Assembly: GCA_026397335.1 (NCBI GenBank)
Contig: JAPLVB010000048.1
Coordinates: 136-64,135, forward strand
Reading direction: 5' to 3'
Length of the DNA: 64,000 nt
From: Candidatus Aenigmatarchaeota archaeon
Lineage (GTDB): Archaea > Aenigmatarchaeota > Aenigmatarchaeia > QMZP01
The position numbers and the translations under genes are program-made. How positions within the stretch are numbered: the first letter of the stretch is position 1; every line of letters starts with the position of its first letter. This document shows, in pieces, positions 9,834-32,977 of the stretch. The notes under the pieces were generated by a model, which worked only from the letters and a program-made list of their open reading frames with translations, was not told the origin of the DNA and searched no databases.

Positions 9834-10856
9834 CTAATTTTCCTTCCTGGCTGCAGCCCACTGGACCAGGGAGCGGACGAAATCCTGGTATGTTTTCCCC
9901 GTGGCGAAGAAGGAGCGCATGAATCCTGCCTTGGGGGAGATGTCCGGGTTCGCGTTCACTTCCAGGACGTGCGGCCTTCCATTTGAGTCAAGCCTGAAGT
10001 CAACCCTCGCATAGTCCCTGAAGCGGAATATTTCAGCGCACTTTATTGCAGTTCTCTTTATCTTTTCCTCGAGATTCTTTTCAATCTCCGCGGGGCATTT
10101 CACAGGGGTGTTTTTGTATTCCTCGCTATCCTCCAGCCATTTCGCATTGTAATCCGTGATTTTTGGCTTACCTTCAGGGAAGTTCTCAAAAACTATTTCG
10201 GATATAGGGAGAATCTCGATTTCGGGATAGTTGCCGAAGAGGGAAACGTGGAACTCGCGGCCTTCGAGATACTCCTCCACGAGCGCGGGCTGCTTGAATT
10301 TGTCCAGAACGAAAGCGACCCTTTTTTCAAGATCCTCTTTGCTGTTCACAACAGCTCCGGAGTCTATCCCGAAGCTCCCGTCCTCATTATTTGGCTTCAC
10401 AATCGCGGGAAATTTGAGCGGGTAGGATATTTTTTGGGAGGAGTGGTAAATCCGGTATCTTGGAGTTGGTATGCCCTCCCTGACAAGTATGTGCTTCGTC
10501 TTCTGCTTGTCATTCGTCATTATCAGGCCGAATATGTCAGAGCCTGTATAAGGAATGTTCAGAAGGTTGAGGATAGCGGGGATGTTTATCTCGTTCTGGC
10601 TGTTCCCGTTTATGTCCTCACAGACGTTGAAGACCATGTCCACGCCGGAATTCTTTACGCGGCTGAAGAATCGCCCAATCGAATATTTCTGGTCCGAGCC
10701 GTTCAGCTCAAGCGGGATTATAACAGGCTCATGACCGAGCGATCTGATGGATTTCCTGAGAGAATTAACATCGTTCTTTATTCCTTCAATTGCGAGAACA
10801 TCATGTTCTGTTCTGCACTTCTTCCCCCCCTTGTCATAAATTATTCCGACTCTCAT
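9834..10856 (-). CDS. ATP-grasp enzyme of the D-alanine--D-alanine ligase family
   Basis: Ddl-like layout: N-terminal domain, then an ATP-grasp core with an EEYLEGREF-type motif and RVDFRLDSNGRPHVLEVNANP. Confidence 0.65.
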   Translation of the reverse strand: MRVGIIYDKGGKKCRTEHDVLAIEGIKNDVNSLRKSIRSLGHEPVIIPLELNGSDQKYSIGRFFSRVKNSGVDMVFNVCEDINGNSQNEINIPAILNLLNIPYTGSDIFGLIMTNDKQKTKHILVREGIPTPRYRIYHSSQKISYPLKFPAIVKPNNEDGSFGIDSGAVVNSKEDLEKRVAFVLDKFKQPALVEEYLEGREFHVSLFGNYPEIEILPISEIVFENFPEGKPKITDYNAKWLEDSEEYKNTPVKCPAEIEKNLEEKIKRTAIKCAEIFRFRDYARVDFRLDSNGRPHVLEVNANPDISPKAGFMRSFFATGKTYQDFVRSLVQWAAARKEN

Positions 10857-11260
10857 TTCTGGTTTATGAAAATATTTTAAAGTTTTTCCAATTGTAAATG
10901 CTGAATTTCTGGTTTTGAAAGAACTAATATATTATTTATTGTATTTGGTATAAATAAGTTTTTCTTTTTTCACATTGTCCTGCACAAATTTACAACAATA
11001 TTTTATGAAAATAAGAAAATAAAGGGAAAGATTTTTAAGCATATCTGCACAATAGATAGTCATGGATGAAGCCGCAAGCAGATGGGTGCGAATTTTTGGC
11101 GGTTTTAGTTCTAGCTACAGGTATTTCTATTTTTACTGATGATCCCGCACCTTTTTCGGGATTGTCTGCAATTTCTACAAATAGAGGGATAATCCTGTTT
11201 TCTGGTCCGGGCTTCTGCGGTTAGATTTACCTGCAGCGCTAAAAAAGAAAGAGGTGGAAA

Positions 11261-12002: not shown

Positions 12003-14279
12003 ATGCGGTCGGGTGGAGGTATGGATAATACGCAAATCAAGGTTGATGAGCCTAGGAAGAATGAATGCGAAGCTTACCGGGTAGTTTTGCTGGACGGGGA
12101 GAGGAAAAAAGGCGAGATCAAAGACGTCAGGATTGTAAGGCTGGGCGGCCCAGAAAATAGGTATGTGAAAAGGGAGCCAGGGAAGGACAAATCGGCGGAA
12201 GGCGCTGCGCAGCGCCTTCAATCGAAGGTCGCGGTTCCTGAAATTCCAAGGGCAGCGGCTGTATCCAAAAAAAAGGGCGGCGTGCGGGTAATAGATTTGA
12301 AGAAGGCTTCCGAGAAGGAGGCCGAGAAGGCGAAAGCGAAAGCGGATTCTAAGGCAGAGGAAGAGAAGCGTCTCAGGCGCGATTTGAACAATTCCATAGC
12401 AGAGGGCTCATTCACAACCGCATCAAGCAGCATAGTAAGCTCCTACTCAACCCCCTTTGCGCTGGCGCTTAATGCCTCCAACTCTGAAATCGGGATTCTG
12501 AATTCCGTCCAGAACCTTGCCGGAATTCTTTCGCAGCTTCCTGGCGCAAGGCTCACAAAAAGCATGACCAGGAAAAAAATCTGGGTAATGTGCACCATCC
12601 TTTCCAGGCTGTTCCTGATACCGCTTATATTCATAGGGCTCTTCGCACCTTCCACAGAGATATGGCTGCTGATAATTCTCCTTGGGATGGTTGGCTTCTT
12701 TAGCAGCATGAGAGGGCCCGCATGGTCAAGCATGATGGGCGACCTCGTGCCTGTGGAAAGGAGAGGAAGATACTTCGGCAAAAGGAACATGATAATAGGG
12801 TTTGCAGGCATGGTTGCCACGCTTGGGGCAGGAGCTGCCGTATTCTACTTTGGGTTTCCTGTGATTTTTGGAATAGCCGTTGTCCTCACTTTCATATCCA
12901 TAATATTCTTTTTGCGCATAAGAGAACCAGAACTTAAACAGGAGAGAGAATATCACTACAGGCTGCATTTCCACCCGAGCGATTTAATCTACCAGATAAA
13001 GACGAACAGAAATTTCGCAATCTTCACCATCTACATGACTGTGGTGAACTTTGGTGTCAATATAGCGTCACCCTTTGCTGCTGTATATATGCTCAAGAAC
13101 CTGGATATAGGTTACGCATGGTTTGCAGTGCTGGTTACAATAGGCGCTCTGGCCCAGCTGCTTTCAATGAAATACTGGGGAAACAGGTGCGACAATTACG
13201 GGAACCGCAAGATCCTTGTGATATCCGGAATCCTGATATGCTTCGTTCCCCTAGGCTACATGCTTTCCACGAATGTTTTCCATCTTATACTCCTGAAGGT
13301 ATATGACGGGTTCGTATGGGGCGCTTTCGACCTGGTGGTGTTCAACTACCTGCTTGCCGTCACGCCTTCAGAGAAGAGGCCCGGATTCGTGGCAAACCAC
13401 AATTTCATTACAGGTGCGGGAACTGTCACAGGGGCGTTATTCGGGGCATTCCTGGCCCAGCAGTTCGAAACAAGCAGCTTCATGCTGTTCTATGGCCTCC
13501 AGCTGGTATTCCTGATATCCTTCATCCTCAGGCTAAGCTCCATATCCTTCCTGTCCAGGATAGCAGAGGTGGAGAAGAAGGAGAGCGAGCGCATTCCTGT
13601 GAGATATGTGTTCTGGGACACGGTTGCAATAGGCCCTGCAAAGGGAGTGGAGCATGCCGTGAGCAGCGCCTTCCGCTACCCTTACGGGGTTAAGATTAAA
13701 AGCAAGCTCGGACTAAATAATAACAGAAAAATAAAGCTCTCAACAAAAAAATTTGAGTCAGGGAACTCGCAAAAGCAGCGAATGAAGGTGAACGAAAGAA
13801 AGAAGGTGGAACTGGAGAACGAGACACCTTCAGGCAATAAGCCACCTTCAATCACAAATCACGTTCCAGCGAAGGTGTTTGATCATATAGGTGTCCTTCC
13901 GGTTAAAAAGCAAAAGATTGCGGGCGGATTCAGTCAAGAAAATGGGGTGTTTGAAATGGTATTAGGCAATAGGCAAAAACAGAAATCTGATGATAGAAGC
14001 GAATATGTTGAGCTTGGACTTGAGAGGCAGGCTCCCAAAACAGCGAAGATAGTGGTTCACCATCTCCAGAGGTTCTCGGAGACGGACAAGATTGTGAAGA
14101 GTATCCGCGCGAAAAACATTGTTTTCGTGGGGCTCAAGACCATGAAGCAGACCAATCTGGACGAGCTCAAGCAGGCAGTCGCAAAGATAAACAGGGCATG
14201 CATAGAGAACGGCTCGAACCTTTCGCTCGTGGAGGAGGAGTGGCTGATAATCACGCCTCAGACGGCGGCGATTGTTTAA
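12003..14279 (+). CDS. Fusion ORF joining a multi-pass (about 10-12 TM) transporter-like membrane domain to a SepF-like (DUF552) cell-division domain. The N-terminal ~187 codons are doubtful and a plausible alternative start is at 12564.
   Basis: The TM-rich core carries a GDLVPVERRGRYFG segment that resembles an MFS loop 2-3 motif, but this is weak. The last ~80 aa (KIVVHHLQRFSETDKIVKSIRAKNIVFVGL...WLIITPQTAAI) match the SepF core pattern. The linker at 13784-13855 contains a degenerate repeat copy. An in-frame ATG at 13782 could start a stand-alone 166-aa SepF if an unseen frameshift or stop exists. Confidence 0.5.
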   Translation: MRSGGGMDNTQIKVDEPRKNECEAYRVVLLDGERKKGEIKDVRIVRLGGPENRYVKREPGKDKSAEGAAQRLQSKVAVPEIPRAAAVSKKKGGVRVIDLKKASEKEAEKAKAKADSKAEEEKRLRRDLNNSIAEGSFTTASSSIVSSYSTPFALALNASNSEIGILNSVQNLAGILSQLPGARLTKSMTRKKIWVMCTILSRLFLIPLIFIGLFAPSTEIWLLIILLGMVGFFSSMRGPAWSSMMGDLVPVERRGRYFGKRNMIIGFAGMVATLGAGAAVFYFGFPVIFGIAVVLTFISIIFFLRIREPELKQEREYHYRLHFHPSDLIYQIKTNRNFAIFTIYMTVVNFGVNIASPFAAVYMLKNLDIGYAWFAVLVTIGALAQLLSMKYWGNRCDNYGNRKILVISGILICFVPLGYMLSTNVFHLILLKVYDGFVWGAFDLVVFNYLLAVTPSEKRPGFVANHNFITGAGTVTGALFGAFLAQQFETSSFMLFYGLQLVFLISFILRLSSISFLSRIAEVEKKESERIPVRYVFWDTVAIGPAKGVEHAVSSAFRYPYGVKIKSKLGLNNNRKIKLSTKKFESGNSQKQRMKVNERKKVELENETPSGNKPPSITNHVPAKVFDHIGVLPVKKQKIAGGFSQENGVFEMVLGNRQKQKSDDRSEYVELGLERQAPKTAKIVVHHLQRFSETDKIVKSIRAKNIVFVGLKTMKQTNLDELKQAVAKINRACIENGSNLSLVEEEWLIITPQTAAIV
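12198..12219. repeat. Repeat copy R6: GAAGGCGCTG-CG-CAGCGCCTTC (perfect 22-nt palindrome) followed by aatcg
   Basis: Seen directly. It lies inside the annotated N-terminal extension of the ORF at 12003-14279. Confidence 0.75.
13784..13855. repeat. Degenerate repeat copy R7 inside the transporter-SepF linker: gaaggtgaacgaaagaaagaaGGTGG...CACCTTC...ccaccttcaatca
   Basis: Near-identical to 24904-24950 (gaaggcgaacgaaagaaagaaggtgcacagcaccttcaatcg). Confidence 0.6.
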
Positions 14280-27047: not shown

Positions 27048-27545
27048 ATGATATTATCAGTCCAGACCGAGGGCTTTTCCGCGGATGCGAAGATTTTAGC
27101 CATAGGACTGAAGAGGCAGGCGTTCCTAAGGATTTGGAAGTCCTGGGAATTCGCGGACGAGAGGGAAATGATTTTTGACTTCATGAAGTATTTCCTCAAG
27201 ACAGATGATAAGATAGTTATAGGCTTCAATAACCTCAAGCTGGACATCCCTCTGTTACTCCTCCGCTCTGCAGGCCTTCCAAGCTTTGGAGAATTCTTCA
27301 AGAAGATGAATTATGCAAACGCGGAGGATTTGTTCGTGATACTCACATTCATAAACAGGGGCGTGATAAAGGGCCTTGACTATTACTGCAAGAAGGAAGG
27401 CATAGCCTGCGACTTCTCAGACAGGGAGATTATAAGCGCATACAATTCAAAGGATTATGCGAGATTCCAGGAGCTTTTCAAAAAGAAGCTTGAGGCGATG
27501 GATGCATTGTTCCTGAAGATGTGGGAGAAGGTGACGAAGGGATAA
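27048..27545 (+). CDS. RNase-H-like (DnaQ/PolB-exonuclease-fold) protein; catalytic residues appear degenerate
   Basis: Exo-II-like VIGFNNLKLDIPLL; the Exo-I position reads QTE rather than DxE. Distant paralog of the gene at 28133-28729. Confidence 0.35.
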   Translation: MILSVQTEGFSADAKILAIGLKRQAFLRIWKSWEFADEREMIFDFMKYFLKTDDKIVIGFNNLKLDIPLLLLRSAGLPSFGEFFKKMNYANAEDLFVILTFINRGVIKGLDYYCKKEGIACDFSDREIISAYNSKDYARFQELFKKKLEAMDALFLKMWEKVTKG

Positions 27546-28132: not shown

Positions 28133-28729
28133 ATGGATATGTACTTCGACATAGAGGTCGCTTACACAGACCCTAAATATTTGGAACTTATGAAGCTTGG
28201 GAGGAAGACCCCTGACCCGCACCCTAGCAACTGCAAGATAATCACGATACAATACCAGCTGCTCAAGGATGACGGGACGCCTAAAGGCCCCTTGAGAATA
28301 TTCAGGGAGTGGGATTCTTCTGAGGAGCAGATTATCAGGAAGATTGCGACCATGATACATCCCCAGAGGAAATGGGAGTTCATACCAGTGGGCCACAACA
28401 TCTATTTTGACCTTGGGATGCTTAGGGAGAGGGCCTCCCTTTACGGGATAAACTACCCTGCCTGGTTTATCTACAATGACCTGCCGAGCATAGACATCAA
28501 GCACATATGCGTGGGAATGAACGCATTCAAGCTCAAGGATTCGGGGCTGGACAAGTTCTCAGGAAAGGAGACAAGCGGATTGAACGTGCCTGTATGGTAT
28601 CAAGAGAAAGAGTATGGCAAGATAATAGATTACATAGAGAAAGAGGCGAAAGAGTTTATAGAATTCTACAGGAAACTGAAGGAGACGCTTCCTCTATTTC
28701 GCCAGCAGCATGGATTTTGTAAGGATTGA
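28133..28729 (+). CDS. Predicted 3-prime-5-prime exonuclease with the DEDD/RNase-H-like fold
   Basis: YFDIEV (Exo I DxE), IPVGHNIYFDLGML (Exo II) and YGKIIDY (Exo III Y-x3-D). Confidence 0.5.
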   Translation: MDMYFDIEVAYTDPKYLELMKLGRKTPDPHPSNCKIITIQYQLLKDDGTPKGPLRIFREWDSSEEQIIRKIATMIHPQRKWEFIPVGHNIYFDLGMLRERASLYGINYPAWFIYNDLPSIDIKHICVGMNAFKLKDSGLDKFSGKETSGLNVPVWYQEKEYGKIIDYIEKEAKEFIEFYRKLKETLPLFRQQHGFCKD

Positions 28730-29162
28730 CATGCCCCAGATATTTGTCTATTTCTTTGCTTGTTTTATCCATCTTGGCTTTTAGTATGTTCATAACATCT
28801 TTTGTTTCTTTGGGAGAAAACCCAGCTTCTGTAGCATCGGAAATATTCCTTTCTATGAATAAAATATCGCTTGCAGCTTTCCAAAAACGTCTTTTTTCTA
28901 GGTCTTCCTGTGCACACTCCAATTGTTCTTTGTAAAAGCCCTTCTTGTCGCAATATGCTTTAATAGAGTCAAGCATCCCAAGACCTAACAGCTTTCTATA
29001 AAATTCAGACGACTCGTCTTTGTCAGGATGGCATACATATTTTACAAACCTGCTTGTAAGACCAAGGGCTCCATATTCACCTGAAAGTATAGAGTTTAGA
29101 ATTTCCTTTGCAATAACCCCTTCAAAGAAGGTATTGTAAAATTGGGAATCCAATCCTTCCAT
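28656..29162 (-). CDS. Hypothetical protein (start set at MEGLDSQ to avoid overlapping the upstream gene)
   Basis: ORF only; its 3-prime end overlaps the exonuclease gene antisense by about 74 nt. Confidence 0.3.
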   Translation of the reverse strand: MEGLDSQFYNTFFEGVIAKEILNSILSGEYGALGLTSRFVKYVCHPDKDESSEFYRKLLGLGMLDSIKAYCDKKGFYKEQLECAQEDLEKRRFWKAASDILFIERNISDATEAGFSPKETKDVMNILKAKMDKTSKEIDKYLGHVNPYKIHAAGEIEEASPSVSCRIL

Positions 29163-29167
29163 AATAC

Positions 29168-29554
29168 TCACTTTCTTTCGTATATTTCCAGTTCGTGCGG
29201 TCTTGTTTGCTTGGCGCCCAAAATAGTATTCATTGCCCTCAACCCGTTCAATCTCTCTGTCAATTGCCTGCATACATAGGCGGCTCCGTCAGCTGTTTCT
29301 TCCTCATCGTTTGGGAGCGTTACAGGGCCTTGAATACTCGTTTTGCTATGAGAATCGAGTTCAAATATCATGACATAATCAGTGTCAGTGCCGTGGGGAA
29401 CCTCACTTTCAACTATCAAGGTCCCCTTGATATACAATTCTAATTTCGGTCTGTACATTCTTTCAAGATTGGTTAATTCCACTGTCTGCTCAAAGCATTC
29501 GTCCCTGAAATCCTTCTTAATTTTAGGAACCCTATTCTTTATCATATTTACCAC
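29168..29554 (-). CDS. Hypothetical protein
   Basis: ORF only. Confidence 0.35.
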   Translation of the reverse strand: MVNMIKNRVPKIKKDFRDECFEQTVELTNLERMYRPKLELYIKGTLIVESEVPHGTDTDYVMIFELDSHSKTSIQGPVTLPNDEEETADGAAYVCRQLTERLNGLRAMNTILGAKQTRPHELEIYERK

Positions 29555-29902
29555 TTATTGATGGTTACTTTATTCCTTTATAAAGCTTTCTCCAAGGGAA
29601 TCCTCACTTCCCTCTTTTGCCTTGGGTAAATCCTTATTAAAATGCTTACCATTGGGGGCAGCTTTTTGCCGTTCCTATAGACAAATCCCTCAAAATCGCT
29701 ATCTATCACCTCTATTTTGTCTCAAGAGAAGCTTCCCTTCCACTAAGGGGTCAAATTTCAGGGAACCCTCACTCTAGTGTCTAAAAGTCATTTTATAAAA
29801 TATATTATATAAAGAATATTTATAAAAATATAATATAAAATAGATATTTTTGAATAGTATATATTTTATAGATATAATTAAAAATGGTTAAAATAAAATA
29901 TA

Positions 29903-30478
29903 TTATTTAAAATCTATATTTCTGAAGGCTTTCTCTACATACATGCTGTTTTTTCTAATCTGGAAAGACTGATGAAATCCGAAAAATGAGTCCCATGATA
30001 CCGATTTAGTTACAGTGAAAAATCTATAATTCTCTCCTTCCGGTTGGATAATCCACAAAGAAGTTTTCGGGCTTTCAAGATAGTCGATGGCTTTCCTTAT
30101 AGCGCATGGACCGCATTCCAAGGTTATTGTTTCTTCTCCCTTCTTTGCAAGAACATCTGGTATGCCTCCCATAAAACCGCATTCTATTGACGCTATTCTA
30201 TATCCCAAGTCTTTAAGCAATCTGATGCCGAATGCCTTCATCTCCTTCTGAGGACCCCGGATTCCTCCTATCTTTACAGGAGTCTTTTTGAGCGTTTTCT
30301 TTCTGATGAAGATCGCTTTGTTGTCCAGAAAACCAGCAACTATAACCGCATATTCGCTACTTGTATATCTGATATTGCCTTGTGTGAAAATATCATTTAT
30401 CCTATCAATTGTTTCGAATTTTGTCTTGTAGGTCTTTATGAGGGAGACATATCTCTCCGCTTCAGTTGTCATGCACAA
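29903..30478 (-). CDS. Hypothetical protein with a weak PD-(D/E)xK-like motif
   Basis: GGIPDVLAKKGEETITLECG resembles a restriction-endonuclease-fold PD...ExK with the Lys replaced; speculative. Confidence 0.3.
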   Translation of the reverse strand: MCMTTEAERYVSLIKTYKTKFETIDRINDIFTQGNIRYTSSEYAVIVAGFLDNKAIFIRKKTLKKTPVKIGGIRGPQKEMKAFGIRLLKDLGYRIASIECGFMGGIPDVLAKKGEETITLECGPCAIRKAIDYLESPKTSLWIIQPEGENYRFFTVTKSVSWDSFFGFHQSFQIRKNSMYVEKAFRNIDFK

Positions 30479-30485
30479 ACCTCTT

Positions 30486-31064
30486 TCAGAACAAATCGCC
30501 CATTATCTTCTCATAGCTTTTCTGCACGGAATCCATGCTAGGCGTTCCATAAACGTCTATGGTTGTCTTTATGGAAGAATGTCCGAGTATCTTTTGGACC
30601 TCCTCCATCCTCATCCCTTTCTCCAGCATCATCCTGGCGAAGGAGTGCCTGAAAAGATGAGGATTGATGCATTTCTTGGCAGGGTTTGGGTGATTTACCC
30701 CAGCTCTTTGGCCGCATTTTGCCACTATTTCATTGATTTGCTTAAGGGAAATGGTGCTCTGCTTGTTGCTTATTATGAGCTTGCCGGATGACCTGTCCCC
30801 TAGATAGAACTTAATATCCTGAAGGGTATCGGAATCTACAGGCACAGTCCTGCTTTTGTCTCCTTTGCCGCTCCTTATGTATATCCTTTTCTTTCCGAAA
30901 TCGACATCCTTTATGGTGAGATCCCGGAGCTCGAACCTTCTCATTCCTGTCCTGGCAAGTATCTTTATTATAACCCTATCCCTGAGGGAAGAAGCACACA
31001 AGATAATTTTCCCTATGTCTTCCTTTGCCAAATAATAGAAAGACTCCTTTGCAGCTTCTGACAT
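30486..31064 (-). CDS. Tyrosine recombinase/integrase, short catalytic-domain-only form of about 192 aa
   Basis: ARTGMRRFEL (box I Arg), KGDKSRTVP (Lys), HLFRHSFA (H-x-x-R) and LGHSSIKTTIDVYG (His...Tyr nucleophile). No N-terminal core-binding domain. Confidence 0.8.
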   Translation of the reverse strand: MSEAAKESFYYLAKEDIGKIILCASSLRDRVIIKILARTGMRRFELRDLTIKDVDFGKKRIYIRSGKGDKSRTVPVDSDTLQDIKFYLGDRSSGKLIISNKQSTISLKQINEIVAKCGQRAGVNHPNPAKKCINPHLFRHSFARMMLEKGMRMEEVQKILGHSSIKTTIDVYGTPSMDSVQKSYEKIMGDLF

Positions 31065-31259
31065 GTATTAAATTACGTTACACTTATTTATAAAGGTTAC
31101 GTTTTAGTTACACTTTATAAATTAATGTTACATATAAAGTTACAAAATATACATTCTGTAACGTTTTCTATAGAGAACATCTTTTGGAAGGTACTCAATA
31201 ATCAGGAGGCTAGCTTCCTAAGCTAAACTACCCCAGAAAACGCGATTTGCTCTTGGAAC

Positions 31260-31631
31260 CTAAGCGGCGACTTTCTTCTCTTCCTTTCCGGGCTTTGGCT
31301 GCTTCTTCTTATCTTCCTTTGCTGCGTTCTCCTCTATCTGGGAGAACTTCTTTATCATTGCCTCCACATTATGCGCTATGTCCCAGCCGTCATCCGTGAG
31401 TATGACCTTCTTTATGCGGCCCTGCTTATCGAATTTAACTATGCCCAGGTTCCTGAAAGCGTTTAGGATCTTTATTGTGTGCGAATACGTACAATCAGAT
31501 TCCTTGGCCAGAATAGTCGCATAAACGGGCTTATCCTTGCCGGTTTTCAGGCCCATGAGAATCCTTGCCGGCTTCTCCCTAAGAAACAAATCCTCTAACA
31601 TCCGGTTTTGTGGCATAGTTCTCATCTTCAA
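31260..31631 (-). CDS. Winged-helix DNA-binding protein with a lysine-rich C-terminus
   Basis: wHTH-like segment YATILAKESDCTYSHTIKILNAFRNLGIVKF. Confidence 0.45.
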   Translation of the reverse strand: MKMRTMPQNRMLEDLFLREKPARILMGLKTGKDKPVYATILAKESDCTYSHTIKILNAFRNLGIVKFDKQGRIKKVILTDDGWDIAHNVEAMIKKFSQIEENAAKEDKKKQPKPGKEEKKVAA

Positions 31632-31945
31632 TTTTCACAATAATTTTATGTATTTGTATTATATAAATGTTTCGTTTCTTATTTCATATAATATAGTTTA
31701 TAAAGTATTCTTTATTTATAATATAATAAAATAGATATTATATAAAATAGTTATTTAATTAGAATTATTAAAATATAGTTATTTTAATATATATTATTAA
31801 GTAGTATATTTTTAATCCTCACGGCCAAAGTGAGAGTTCCTTCCAAGAATGGCCCAATAAGGTGAGAGAGATGTTTCACGAGAGAATAGGGTCAATACAT
31901 ATCGGTTTATATAATAATCTCCCTAAGGGCGTAGATTCTAGGATA

Positions 31946-32977
31946 TCAGCCCTTCCACTCCAGCAGAATGGCTGCGAGTAGCAGGACGAATCCCAGGATT
32001 ATTGAGAGGATAAAACTGATTTCAGTGGCAGCAGGGTTCAGGATCATGTCTGTGGCACTATATGCTACCAGGGTTATTGCGAATCCGAACAGAGGGATGG
32101 CAGCTATCTTCCTGGAGCGCTTCTTCTTCACGTTCACGTTTCTGCCTATCCACGGTATCGTGCCCGCGAGGAAGAACAGATATACAGAGTGGGATATGAA
32201 CTCGGCCGCGACATTGATTATGCCTAGGTTCAGGGCTTCTATGGCATGGGAATAACCCCTGTAAGCGGCAAATATAGCCATAGCAATTCCAACCACATAT
32301 CCGAAGAATGCGAATCTTCTGTGATTGAAGGAGTCCTCGAATTCCCTCATCATTCTGAGAACATATGTGTCAAGCTTGAATCCCCTTATGAAAAGATAAA
32401 CACCCACAACCCCGAGAATGAGCCTCCATCCCTCAAAACCGAATATAGCATAGATGATAAGAACGACAGCAGGAATGCCGAAGAGCAGGCGCGAGACCTT
32501 GGGATATTCCAGTGTCTCATGCACGAAGTCCTTTACCTTGAAATAGACGGACTGGAGCTGGTCAGCCTGCCTCACCACGACCCTTTTCACGGAAAGTATG
32601 GGGACCCTGGACTGGATTACAGGCATAACACGCTCATCCTCGCTGCCGTCTGTAACAAGCACAGCAAAATTGGCCTCAAACCTGGAAAGAACGCTCTTCA
32701 GCTGCTCCCCTATTATGCGGTCTGACTTTATCCCAACATCCCTGTCTCCTGTAATAATCGCGATTTCCACGTTATACTGCTTTCTCATTTCGTCATACAC
32801 CTTCACTGTCTGGAAAATCCCGTTGAAGTCAGAGGATTCAGGGTCTTTAAGACCCATATCTATGCCTGTCTTCAGGACGCTATCCCTCCCGATAATGGGG
32901 CCTTTGACTGATATTTTCTGGCCTATGTCATTGTCCCTGTCCACGTTCAAAACCAGAATCTTGTCTGTGGATTTCAT
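31946..32977 (-). CDS. DUF373-like archaeal membrane protein (soluble N-domain plus about 6 C-terminal TM)
   Basis: Architecture and N-terminal ILVLNVDRDNDIG-type segment; family assignment is from memory. Confidence 0.45.
   Translation of the reverse strand: MKSTDKILVLNVDRDNDIGQKISVKGPIIGRDSVLKTGIDMGLKDPESSDFNGIFQTVKVYDEMRKQYNVEIAIITGDRDVGIKSDRIIGEQLKSVLSRFEANFAVLVTDGSEDERVMPVIQSRVPILSVKRVVVRQADQLQSVYFKVKDFVHETLEYPKVSRLLFGIPAVVLIIYAIFGFEGWRLILGVVGVYLFIRGFKLDTYVLRMMREFEDSFNHRRFAFFGYVVGIAMAIFAAYRGYSHAIEALNLGIINVAAEFISHSVYLFFLAGTIPWIGRNVNVKKKRSRKIAAIPLFGFAITLVAYSATDMILNPAATEISFILSIILGFVLLLAAILLEWKG

Follow-up and report, generated by a model that had tools for sequence, protein, structure and literature searches.

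What does a tyrosine recombinase reduced to its catalytic domain do amid the housekeeping genes of an archaeal chromosome? The question is raised by a 64,000-nucleotide (nt) stretch of chromosomal DNA from an aenigmatarchaeote, a member of the DPANN archaea (GenBank assembly GCA_026397335.1, contig JAPLVB010000048.1, positions 136 to 64,135), which we analysed as a whole and call the window. Read along the minus strand, on which all genes of the locus lie, the order is a DUF373 gene (31946-32977), a gene for a small winged helix-turn-helix (wHTH) protein (31260-31631), the recombinase gene (30486-31064) and a gene for a 191-amino-acid (aa) protein, u191 (29903-30478). The open reading frames (ORFs) around the locus are housekeeping ones, including those for FtsY, GatD/GatE, an H+-pyrophosphatase and aminotransferases. 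An initial annotation had read the locus as a small element integrated at the 3′ end of the DUF373 gene. We found a recombinase gene directly preceded by its own dif-like site, and we give somewhat better than even odds (a probability of roughly 0.55) that the locus is a self-contained xer/dif-type dimer-resolution module swapped between lineages, a function suggested by homology, site architecture, single copy and conservation.

Relatives of the locus were collected via DUF373, via recombinase homologs and via an alignment of the wHTH, the last of which contributed 74 metagenome loci. Their gene order was mapped by tblastn, and recombination sites were counted by a pattern scan over all loci. 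Loci of relatives are labelled L001, L009 and so on, and recombinase types are named after representatives (Int192, Int187, Int206 and Int195). An exact-sequence look-up of the window's recombinase and DUF373 proteins gave no match.

A minimal recombinase and its dif-like site

The window recombinase, Int192, is an XerA-like tyrosine recombinase whose 192 aa form the catalytic domain alone (PF00589, E = 6e-35, residues 18-172), and no longer ORF is possible upstream of its reading frame. It has the fold and the R-K-H-R-H/W-Y residues of the tyrosine recombinase superfamily, with R42, K67, H136, R139, H162 and Y172 invariant in eight sequences from four recombinase types. In this the initial annotation, which had seen a full catalytic set and no N-terminal domain, was right. 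Among NCBIfam models, NF040815 (recomb_XerA_Arch) matched best, with E = 2e-47 over profile positions 91-263 of 263; since the first ~90 positions have no counterpart, it scored 162 bits against a cut-off of 220, and Int192 is not a full-length XerA by this model. Its best matches in PDB, its best solved relatives, were XerA of P. abyssi (4a8e, E = 1e-25) and of T. acidophilum (5hxy).

Relatives of the locus carry four recombinase types, Int192, Int187, Int206 and Int195, that are ~30% identical to one another. For all four, NF040815 was the best NCBIfam model (E = 1e-33 to 1e-49), matched in its C-terminal two-thirds only and below the cut-off, and archaeal XerA (4a8e and 5hxy) the best match in PDB. 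Searched against 1.8 billion cluster representatives, the recombinase had nearest relatives that were mostly 190-250 aa long, with the match starting near the N-terminus, indicating that the short form is a sizeable family rather than a truncation artefact. These relatives also included many two-domain tyrosine-recombinase proteins of 530-870 aa (P0282, P0290, P0296 and others). For none of the four types did 2.9 million viral contigs (IMG/VR) yield a close relative; the matches were generic integrases, distant and 36% identical at most. The neighbour genes were scanned with PHROG and PADLOC: nothing phage- or defence-specific came up and, besides the recombinase, there were only two weak generic PHROG matches. 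A literature search of incomplete coverage found no description of short Xer-like recombinases in DPANN archaea or Aenigmatarchaeota.

One relative has a different arrangement. In L094 (4636-10582 of JANQNF010000046.1), a 4.5-kb segment codes for proteins of 77 and 895 aa and for an N6/N4 DNA methyltransferase, and two Int192-like genes, 71-73% identical to the window recombinase, flank it, both facing outward. A perfect 58-bp inverted repeat, whose end falls within a core-like site, bounds the segment, which may be invertible or mobile.

Upstream of the window recombinase gene lies a 28-bp dif-like core site (31137-31164, minus strand), which reads ACGTTACAGAA-TGTATA-TTTTGTAACTT. It was the sole copy in the 64 kb, even with three mismatches allowed and in either orientation. 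Of its 28 positions, 17 agree with what we take to be the E. coli dif sequence, the TGTATA spacer among them. Two ~11-bp inverted arms around a centre of 6-8 bp are the mark of Xer/dif sites, and the arrangement at 31137-31164, 11-6-11, is the dif geometry (PMC2958812, PMC8371274). With T. kodakarensis dif the core site shares 15 of 28 positions (dif sequence from PMC11840125). The core site is conserved upstream of every Int192-type gene in the relatives, and changes in the arms keep the palindrome, as in L009 (GTTACAAAAT..ATTTTGTAAC).

Each recombinase gene is in fact preceded, ~70-100 bp upstream, by a palindrome specific to its recombinase type. The Int192-type site is GTTACAGAA-TGTATA-TTCTGTAAC (also written with an N6 spacer); the Int187 and Int195 types share AATGTCCGAAAA-N6-TTTTCGGACATT (arms also written ATGTCCGAAAA-N6-TTTTCGGACAT); and the Int206-type site is GGTTGACAA-N9-TTGTAAACC, so that three kinds of palindrome serve four types. 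Across loci the arms are conserved and the central bases vary. Site type agreed with the type of the first recombinase in 32/32 loci. Of the 36 loci with a site, 35 have one and 1 has two; a Xer/dif system would have a single site per replicon, and this count is one at the scope of loci and of the 64-kb window. Because there is one site per locus and one in the 64-kb window, the module is not bracketed by attachment (att) sites. Sites were also found at the ends of contigs that stop before the recombinase gene. In the one locus with two sites (L047, 3763-3817), an Int206-type and an Int187-type palindrome stand side by side upstream of an Int187-type gene; to judge from the sequence, this double site looks like a fossil of module replacement.

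The recombinase promoter region (31065-31136, minus strand) contains GTAAC half-sites and a TATA-like box, CTTTATAAATAA, ~30 nt before the ATG. Around this box, on the minus strand, five GTAAC half-sites in direct orientation begin at 31143 (the core right arm), 31131, 31111, 31100 and 31081, at intervals of 11-12 or 19-20 nt. Six GTWAC in 100 nt compare with 0.08 expected (Poisson P ~3e-10), and no other place in the window holds as many as four. The half-site positions are conserved in seven loci, and the layout of core and promoter half-sites also occurs in other DPANN lineages without the wHTH. In the Woesearchaeota-like L098, which has no wHTH neighbour, the half-site is GCAACA in the core and in the promoter-proximal copies alike, a concerted change that is expected if the recombinase itself reads both sets of sites. 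We infer that the recombinase binds the half-sites and autoregulates.

A conserved backbone around an exchangeable slot

The genes on the upstream side of the module form a stable setting. The DUF373 gene (31946-32977, minus strand; PF04123, E = 4e-89) encodes a protein that ends in LLEWKG and is 77% identical to one from an Aenigmatarchaeota metagenome-assembled genome. The wHTH protein (31260-31631, minus strand; 123 aa) is AF_1382-like with a MarR-type winged helix, a long C-terminal helix and a disordered lysine-rich tail; its translation probably starts at M6 or M11. Directly 5′ of it lies an AT-rich block (31632-31815, ~91% AT), which may act as a promoter, and a second block (29780-29902, ~92% AT) closes the variable slot downstream. 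At 91.7% AT over 29780-29900 and 91.3% over 31640-31800, they are two of only three blocks in the whole 64-kb window with at least 80% AT over 120 nt; the third (10851-11046) lies between divergent genes. The blocks have short motifs in common (AATAGATATT at 29839 and 31730, AGTATATATTTT at 29856 and AGTAGTATATTTT at 31800). The DUF373-like gene, the lysine-tailed wHTH protein, the two segments of over 80% AT and their shared motifs had all been noted initially, and each was borne out.

Relatives with a DUF373 of no more than 50-78% identity repeat the same succession of DUF373, AT block, wHTH, recombinase slot and AT block. An AT block stands 100-150 nt upstream of the wHTH in all loci inspected, including recombinase-less ones, and whichever gene comes last in the slot is followed by an AT block of 130-170 nt; in the downstream block, identity to the window was 78-84% in L020, L022 and L001 and 90% in L009. 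The wHTH is more conserved than DUF373 (88-95% identical where DUF373 is 66-77% identical), diverges together with the flanks and does not vary with recombinase type. Since relatives without a recombinase (e.g., L068) keep DUF373, the AT block and the wHTH, we regard the wHTH and the AT blocks as backbone and not as cargo. The recombinase usually lies 150-650 bp past the wHTH on the same strand, and 1.2-4.3 kb past it in L010 and L029, which have inserted genes. Among 48 non-redundant loci with a wHTH at least 60% identical, 40 had a site or recombinase a short way downstream of it, without exception on its strand. That wHTH and module are functionally linked is speculation on our part.

Comparison of the loci also placed the edges of the variable part. 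On the left, the edge falls at 31204 in the DNA alignment with L001 and at 31165-31167 against L009, L010 and L013. The conserved left flank ends with a near-palindrome, AGGAGGCTAGCTTCCT (31204-31219), just after the wHTH stop codon; it is kept whichever recombinase type comes next and may be a terminator. On the right, DNA homology returns either with the final codons of the last slot gene or with the AT block.

Against the window, the flanks of L009 have diverged (DUF373 77%, upstream AT block 82% and wHTH 92% nt identity), and the ~95 nt that precede the site are ~55% identical. Identity climbs to 98-100% at the left arm of the site, holds that level to the end of the recombinase gene and stays at 90-100% into the downstream AT block, where comparable relatives have 78-84%; within this stretch, L009 has a 440-bp deletion inside u191. 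Such near-identity of the module (98-100%) between flanks of 77-92% identity shows that it was recently exchanged between lineages. The sharp identity break at ~31165 is the left arm of the site, so one end of the exchanged tract coincides with the site, and the alignment suggests that the jump in identity is a footprint of exchange at or next to it. The data support a horizontally exchanged unit made of site and recombinase, starting at ~31165, of which relatives carry non-orthologous versions. The initial view of an integrated element or its remnant thus holds insofar as horizontal exchange did occur here; the unit and its ends are different ones. Tandem recombinase genes, a recombinase gene fragment in L010 and the sites of two types in L047 suggest that the slot was refilled more than once.

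In the window the last slot gene encodes u191 (29903-30478, minus strand), whose translation probably starts at the ATG at 30472. Its 191 aa begin with a three-helix part, continue with an Hjc-like PD-(D/E)xK core and end in a long C-terminal helix; the PD-(D/E)xK resemblance first suspected for this protein corresponds to an Hjc-like nuclease fold. Holliday-junction resolvases of the Hjc/Hje kind combine this fold with catalytic E...D...E-x-K residues. In u191 the acidic residues of the core are kept, and the Hjc E-x-K position is an invariant E-C-G-P-C (residues 121-125), which includes a thioredoxin-type CGPC motif. u191 is rare (19 homologs) and optional in the slot. The last ~25-33 nt of u191/u185 genes are DNA-homologous to the 3′ end of Int187-type genes (window 29903-29937; L001 4222-4244; L002 about 11108-11140), and both encode RDLIEKAFKI or a close variant (...(V/I)EKAF..). 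The common end may be a relic of module replacement; alternatively, both proteins may have the same kind of C-terminal helix, used for contacts between recombinase subunits. The C-terminal helix of XerA has been described as a control switch (PMC3646895). u191 may be a passenger of the module or an optional helper.

Sequences bordering the slot

Beyond the downstream AT block lies a conserved non-coding right flank of ~245 nt (29545-29790, minus strand), which starts with AGTGAGGGTTCCCTGAAATTTGACCCC and ends at a TATA box and the start of the next gene. Its nt identity is 75-82% in L001, L020 and L022, and L001 has a 23-nt tandem duplication within it. A structured non-coding RNA in 29545-29790 found no support, the RNAalifold covariation term being unfavourable. 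No tRNA was found in the 64 kb, and Rfam gave no match, including in a permissive scan of 29300-32100.

The motif AAGTGAGRRTTCC occurs three times in the 64 kb, each time here: at 29597-29609 and 29762-29774 on the minus strand and at 31828-31840 on the plus strand. The outer two copies are inverted, and each borders an AT block on its outer side. Elsewhere in Aenigmatarchaeota the motif follows AT blocks and directly precedes start codons, a position that suggests a leader element, a promoter-proximal one or a binding site for a regulator. We considered the AT blocks as a replication origin, given the inverted AAGTGAG motifs and an AGTGGAA core, and rejected this: no Orc1/Cdc6 gene was found among the 20 large ORFs scanned, and the motif is leader- or promoter-proximal-like elsewhere. 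GC skew across the window follows gene orientation and says nothing on the terminus. A 36-aa ORF antisense to the DUF373 3′ end (start 31871) was also rejected, as it is not conserved.

Two further genes (28656-29554, minus strand; 128 and 205 aa) have no family matches and no DNA counterpart in L020, L022 and L002. Both sides of this stretch are conserved in those loci, making it a second variable slot beside the first. Farther along, two small proteins weakly similar to the exonuclease domain of family-B DNA polymerases (27048-27545 and 28133-28729, plus strand) flank a YdjM-like membrane protein; the order of all three is conserved in L002, and the exonuclease-like two are also present in L020. 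Elsewhere in the window, a 758-aa ORF (12003-14279, plus strand) combines a major facilitator superfamily transporter with a C-terminal SepF (cell-division) domain.

Probable dimer resolution and its alternatives

The locus appears to resemble known xer/dif-type systems, with a minimal recombinase, promoter half-sites and interchangeable modules as its variant features. The nearest are the archaeal XerA/dif systems of Pyrococcus abyssi, Thermoplasma acidophilum, Thermococcus kodakarensis and Sulfolobales, which likewise have a single recombinase acting on a palindrome, the 11-6-11 layout and the R-K-H-R-H-Y residues, and whose catalytic domain is the best match of Int192. dif lies close to or upstream of xerA in Sulfolobales and haloarchaea (PMC2958812, PMC11840125). 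More generally, a site adjoining its own single recombinase gene is known from xerS/difSL, xerH/difH, some archaeal xerA/dif and the haloarchaeal xerA operon (PMC5357621, PMC2958812, PMC11840125). In T. kodakarensis, the intergenic region that holds dif is AT-rich and bound by TrmBL2, a wHTH nucleoid protein (PMC11840125), a loose parallel to the AT blocks and wHTH neighbour described here. The XerS/difSL system of streptococci and lactococci and the XerH/difH system of Helicobacter and Campylobacter also combine a site and a dedicated single recombinase gene in one module (PMC5357621); they differ in being bacterial and FtsK-dependent, in recombinases of ~355 aa with N-terminal domains and in other site lengths (difSL, 31 bp). 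The promoter half-sites and the non-orthologous module versions in related genomes set the present locus apart from the archaeal XerA/dif systems.

A mechanism can be proposed from these features. The module comprises the 28-bp dif-like palindrome, the extra half-sites over the promoter and the recombinase gene directly downstream. Recombinase monomers would bind the two arms of the site. When homologous recombination fuses sister chromosomes, the two copies of the site would be synapsed, and strands would be cut and exchanged at the edges of the TGTATA spacer via a Holliday-junction intermediate, restoring monomers. Binding to the GTAAC half-sites around the TATA box would keep recombinase expression low and may help to form a resolution-selective complex. 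Over evolution, a fixed slot between the highly conserved small wHTH and the AT block has been refilled by non-orthologous site-plus-recombinase modules. The half-site layout has a precedent in the internal resolution site of TnpI/Tn4430, in which a palindromic core followed by direct extra recombinase motifs lies immediately upstream of the recombinase gene and gives resolution selectivity. TnpI is a full-length recombinase from a Tn3-family transposon; here, in contrast, there is neither a transposase nor terminal repeats.

Several observations weigh against a role in dimer resolution. Known Xer proteins have an N-terminal core-binding domain, and Int192 is without these ~90-100 residues. 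The core site lacks TAA-N6-TTA, the signature reported to be better conserved than any other part of archaeal dif (PMC11840125), the sites here having GAA/TTC or AAA/TTT in place of TAA/TTA. No module stands beside the wHTH in 6-8 loci with a wHTH at least 60% identical, nor in 15/15 loci below 60%. L010, L037 and L045 contain tandem recombinase gene pairs, and in L094 the two inverted Int192-like genes surround a methyltransferase segment; because of these arrangements, the recombinase family is not limited to one role. Finally, the near-identity with L009 amounts to movement between lineages, which is also expected of a selfish element.

The main rival explanation is accordingly that site and recombinase, with or without u191, are a minimal integrative cassette at a hotspot that renders the host no service; such a cassette might use its own site, or a resident site as IMEX elements exploit dif. 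Four non-orthologous types in the same slot would fit it, as would the lower GC content over 27-33.5 kb, and the tandem pairs and gene fragments of L010, L037 and L045 and the two sites of L047 suggest accretion. The identity of the module between genomes with diverged flanks fits as well, although such recent transfer agrees equally with dimer resolution. We nevertheless think this explanation unlikely, since one full site per locus leaves no attL/attR pair, a shared integration target is hard to picture when the three site sequences differ, the cassette has no replication or transfer genes and no close IMG/VR relatives, and the module is near-universal within the clade, with its catalytic residues strictly kept in all types. 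Nor does the locus look like other integrase systems of the superfamily, the SSV-type, pNOB8-type and integron integrases, even if the NCBIfam XerA model bears the name 'recombinase/integron integrase'. The SSV and pNOB8 systems have a tRNA or gene target, an att duplication and a split int gene, none of which is present here. As for integrons, the match of Int192 to TIGR02249 (IntI) is broken into two stretches and reaches 85 bits, the cut-off being 265, the 192-aa protein has no insertion and is too short for the IntI-specific extra domain (PMC9668308), and a repeat scan of the window found no attC-like repeated hairpins and hence no attC arrays.

An inversion switch would suit the size and architecture of the recombinase. 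FimB/FimE of E. coli are likewise ~200 aa and essentially catalytic domain only; they flip a segment that lies between inverted sites, and depend on IHF and Lrp as accessory proteins that bend DNA. The invertase models NF007370 and NF007371 did match Int192 (E = 1e-13), at 50-51 bits against cut-offs of 221-222 and far below the XerA models, and the L094 pair with its 58-bp inverted repeat would fit such a switch. FimB/FimE act on two inverted repeats around an invertible promoter, however, and within the 64 kb the core site has no second copy in either orientation, which makes this role improbable at the window locus. The inverted AAGTGAG motifs flanking the locus are no substitute, being constant across recombinase types and promoter-proximal or leader-like in other genomes. 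It is still less probable that the protein is a DNA-binding regulator only, a recombinase fold turned repressor like MrpR of prophage SPbeta, with the palindrome and half-sites as its operator. Weak matches to PF22823 (MrpR_C_cat) and half-sites that straddle the TATA box point that way; against it, the identity breaks coincide with the site, and six catalytic residues invariant across types only ~30% identical point to selection for catalysis. Least credible is the model first proposed, a ~2.2-kb element of wHTH, recombinase, u191 and both AT blocks inserted in the DUF373 3′ end and bounded by a 10-nt direct repeat. The repeat, CCCTTCCACT, does occur exactly twice in the window, at both proposed ends (plus strand, 29735-29744 and, inside the last DUF373 codons, 31950-31959; each 2-3 nt from where it was first placed), and the AT blocks do flank the three genes. 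We judge the repeat a chance match: when two such ~330-nt zones, 2.08 kb apart, are placed along the window, 14% of placements have a direct 10-mer in common (10% if it has at least four G/C), and the same two places share only 5-8 nt in six syntenic relatives. The conserved backbone, present with and without a recombinase, contradicts an element that carries the wHTH and both AT blocks, as do a wHTH more conserved than DUF373 and diverging with the flanks, and an identity break at ~31165 and not at 31950. Gene order and AT blocks recur in relatives and the repeat is within chance, essentially as the initial annotation had said would be the case if it were wrong, and the window offers neither a tRNA nor a second recombinase site for an attL/attR pair.

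Taken further, the dimer-resolution reading leads to a wider proposal that we advance tentatively and think rather doubtful. Dimer resolution in DPANN archaea would be carried out by an undescribed class of Xer enzymes without a core-binding domain, each tied to its own dif-like site and self-regulating half-sites, as cassettes swapped by exchange at the site. In Aenigmatarchaeota, DNA handling would be provided in trans by the wHTH on the AT blocks and, in some genomes, by u191, whose C-terminal helix would copy the recombinase's own.

For annotation, short 'integrases' beside this wHTH gene in DPANN archaea should not be counted as markers of integrated elements. If the dimer-resolution reading is correct, the locus shows how a major group of tiny-genome archaea handles chromosome dimers, and that a tyrosine recombinase of ~190 residues without a core-binding domain can serve as an Xer enzyme. 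It would then bear on the minimal needs of Xer recombination and on the control of archaeal Xer without FtsK, and it offers a concrete 28-bp substrate and a small protein that are tractable in vitro though the organisms are uncultured. It would also be a case of a housekeeping-type recombination module behaving as an exchangeable cassette at a fixed chromosomal slot.

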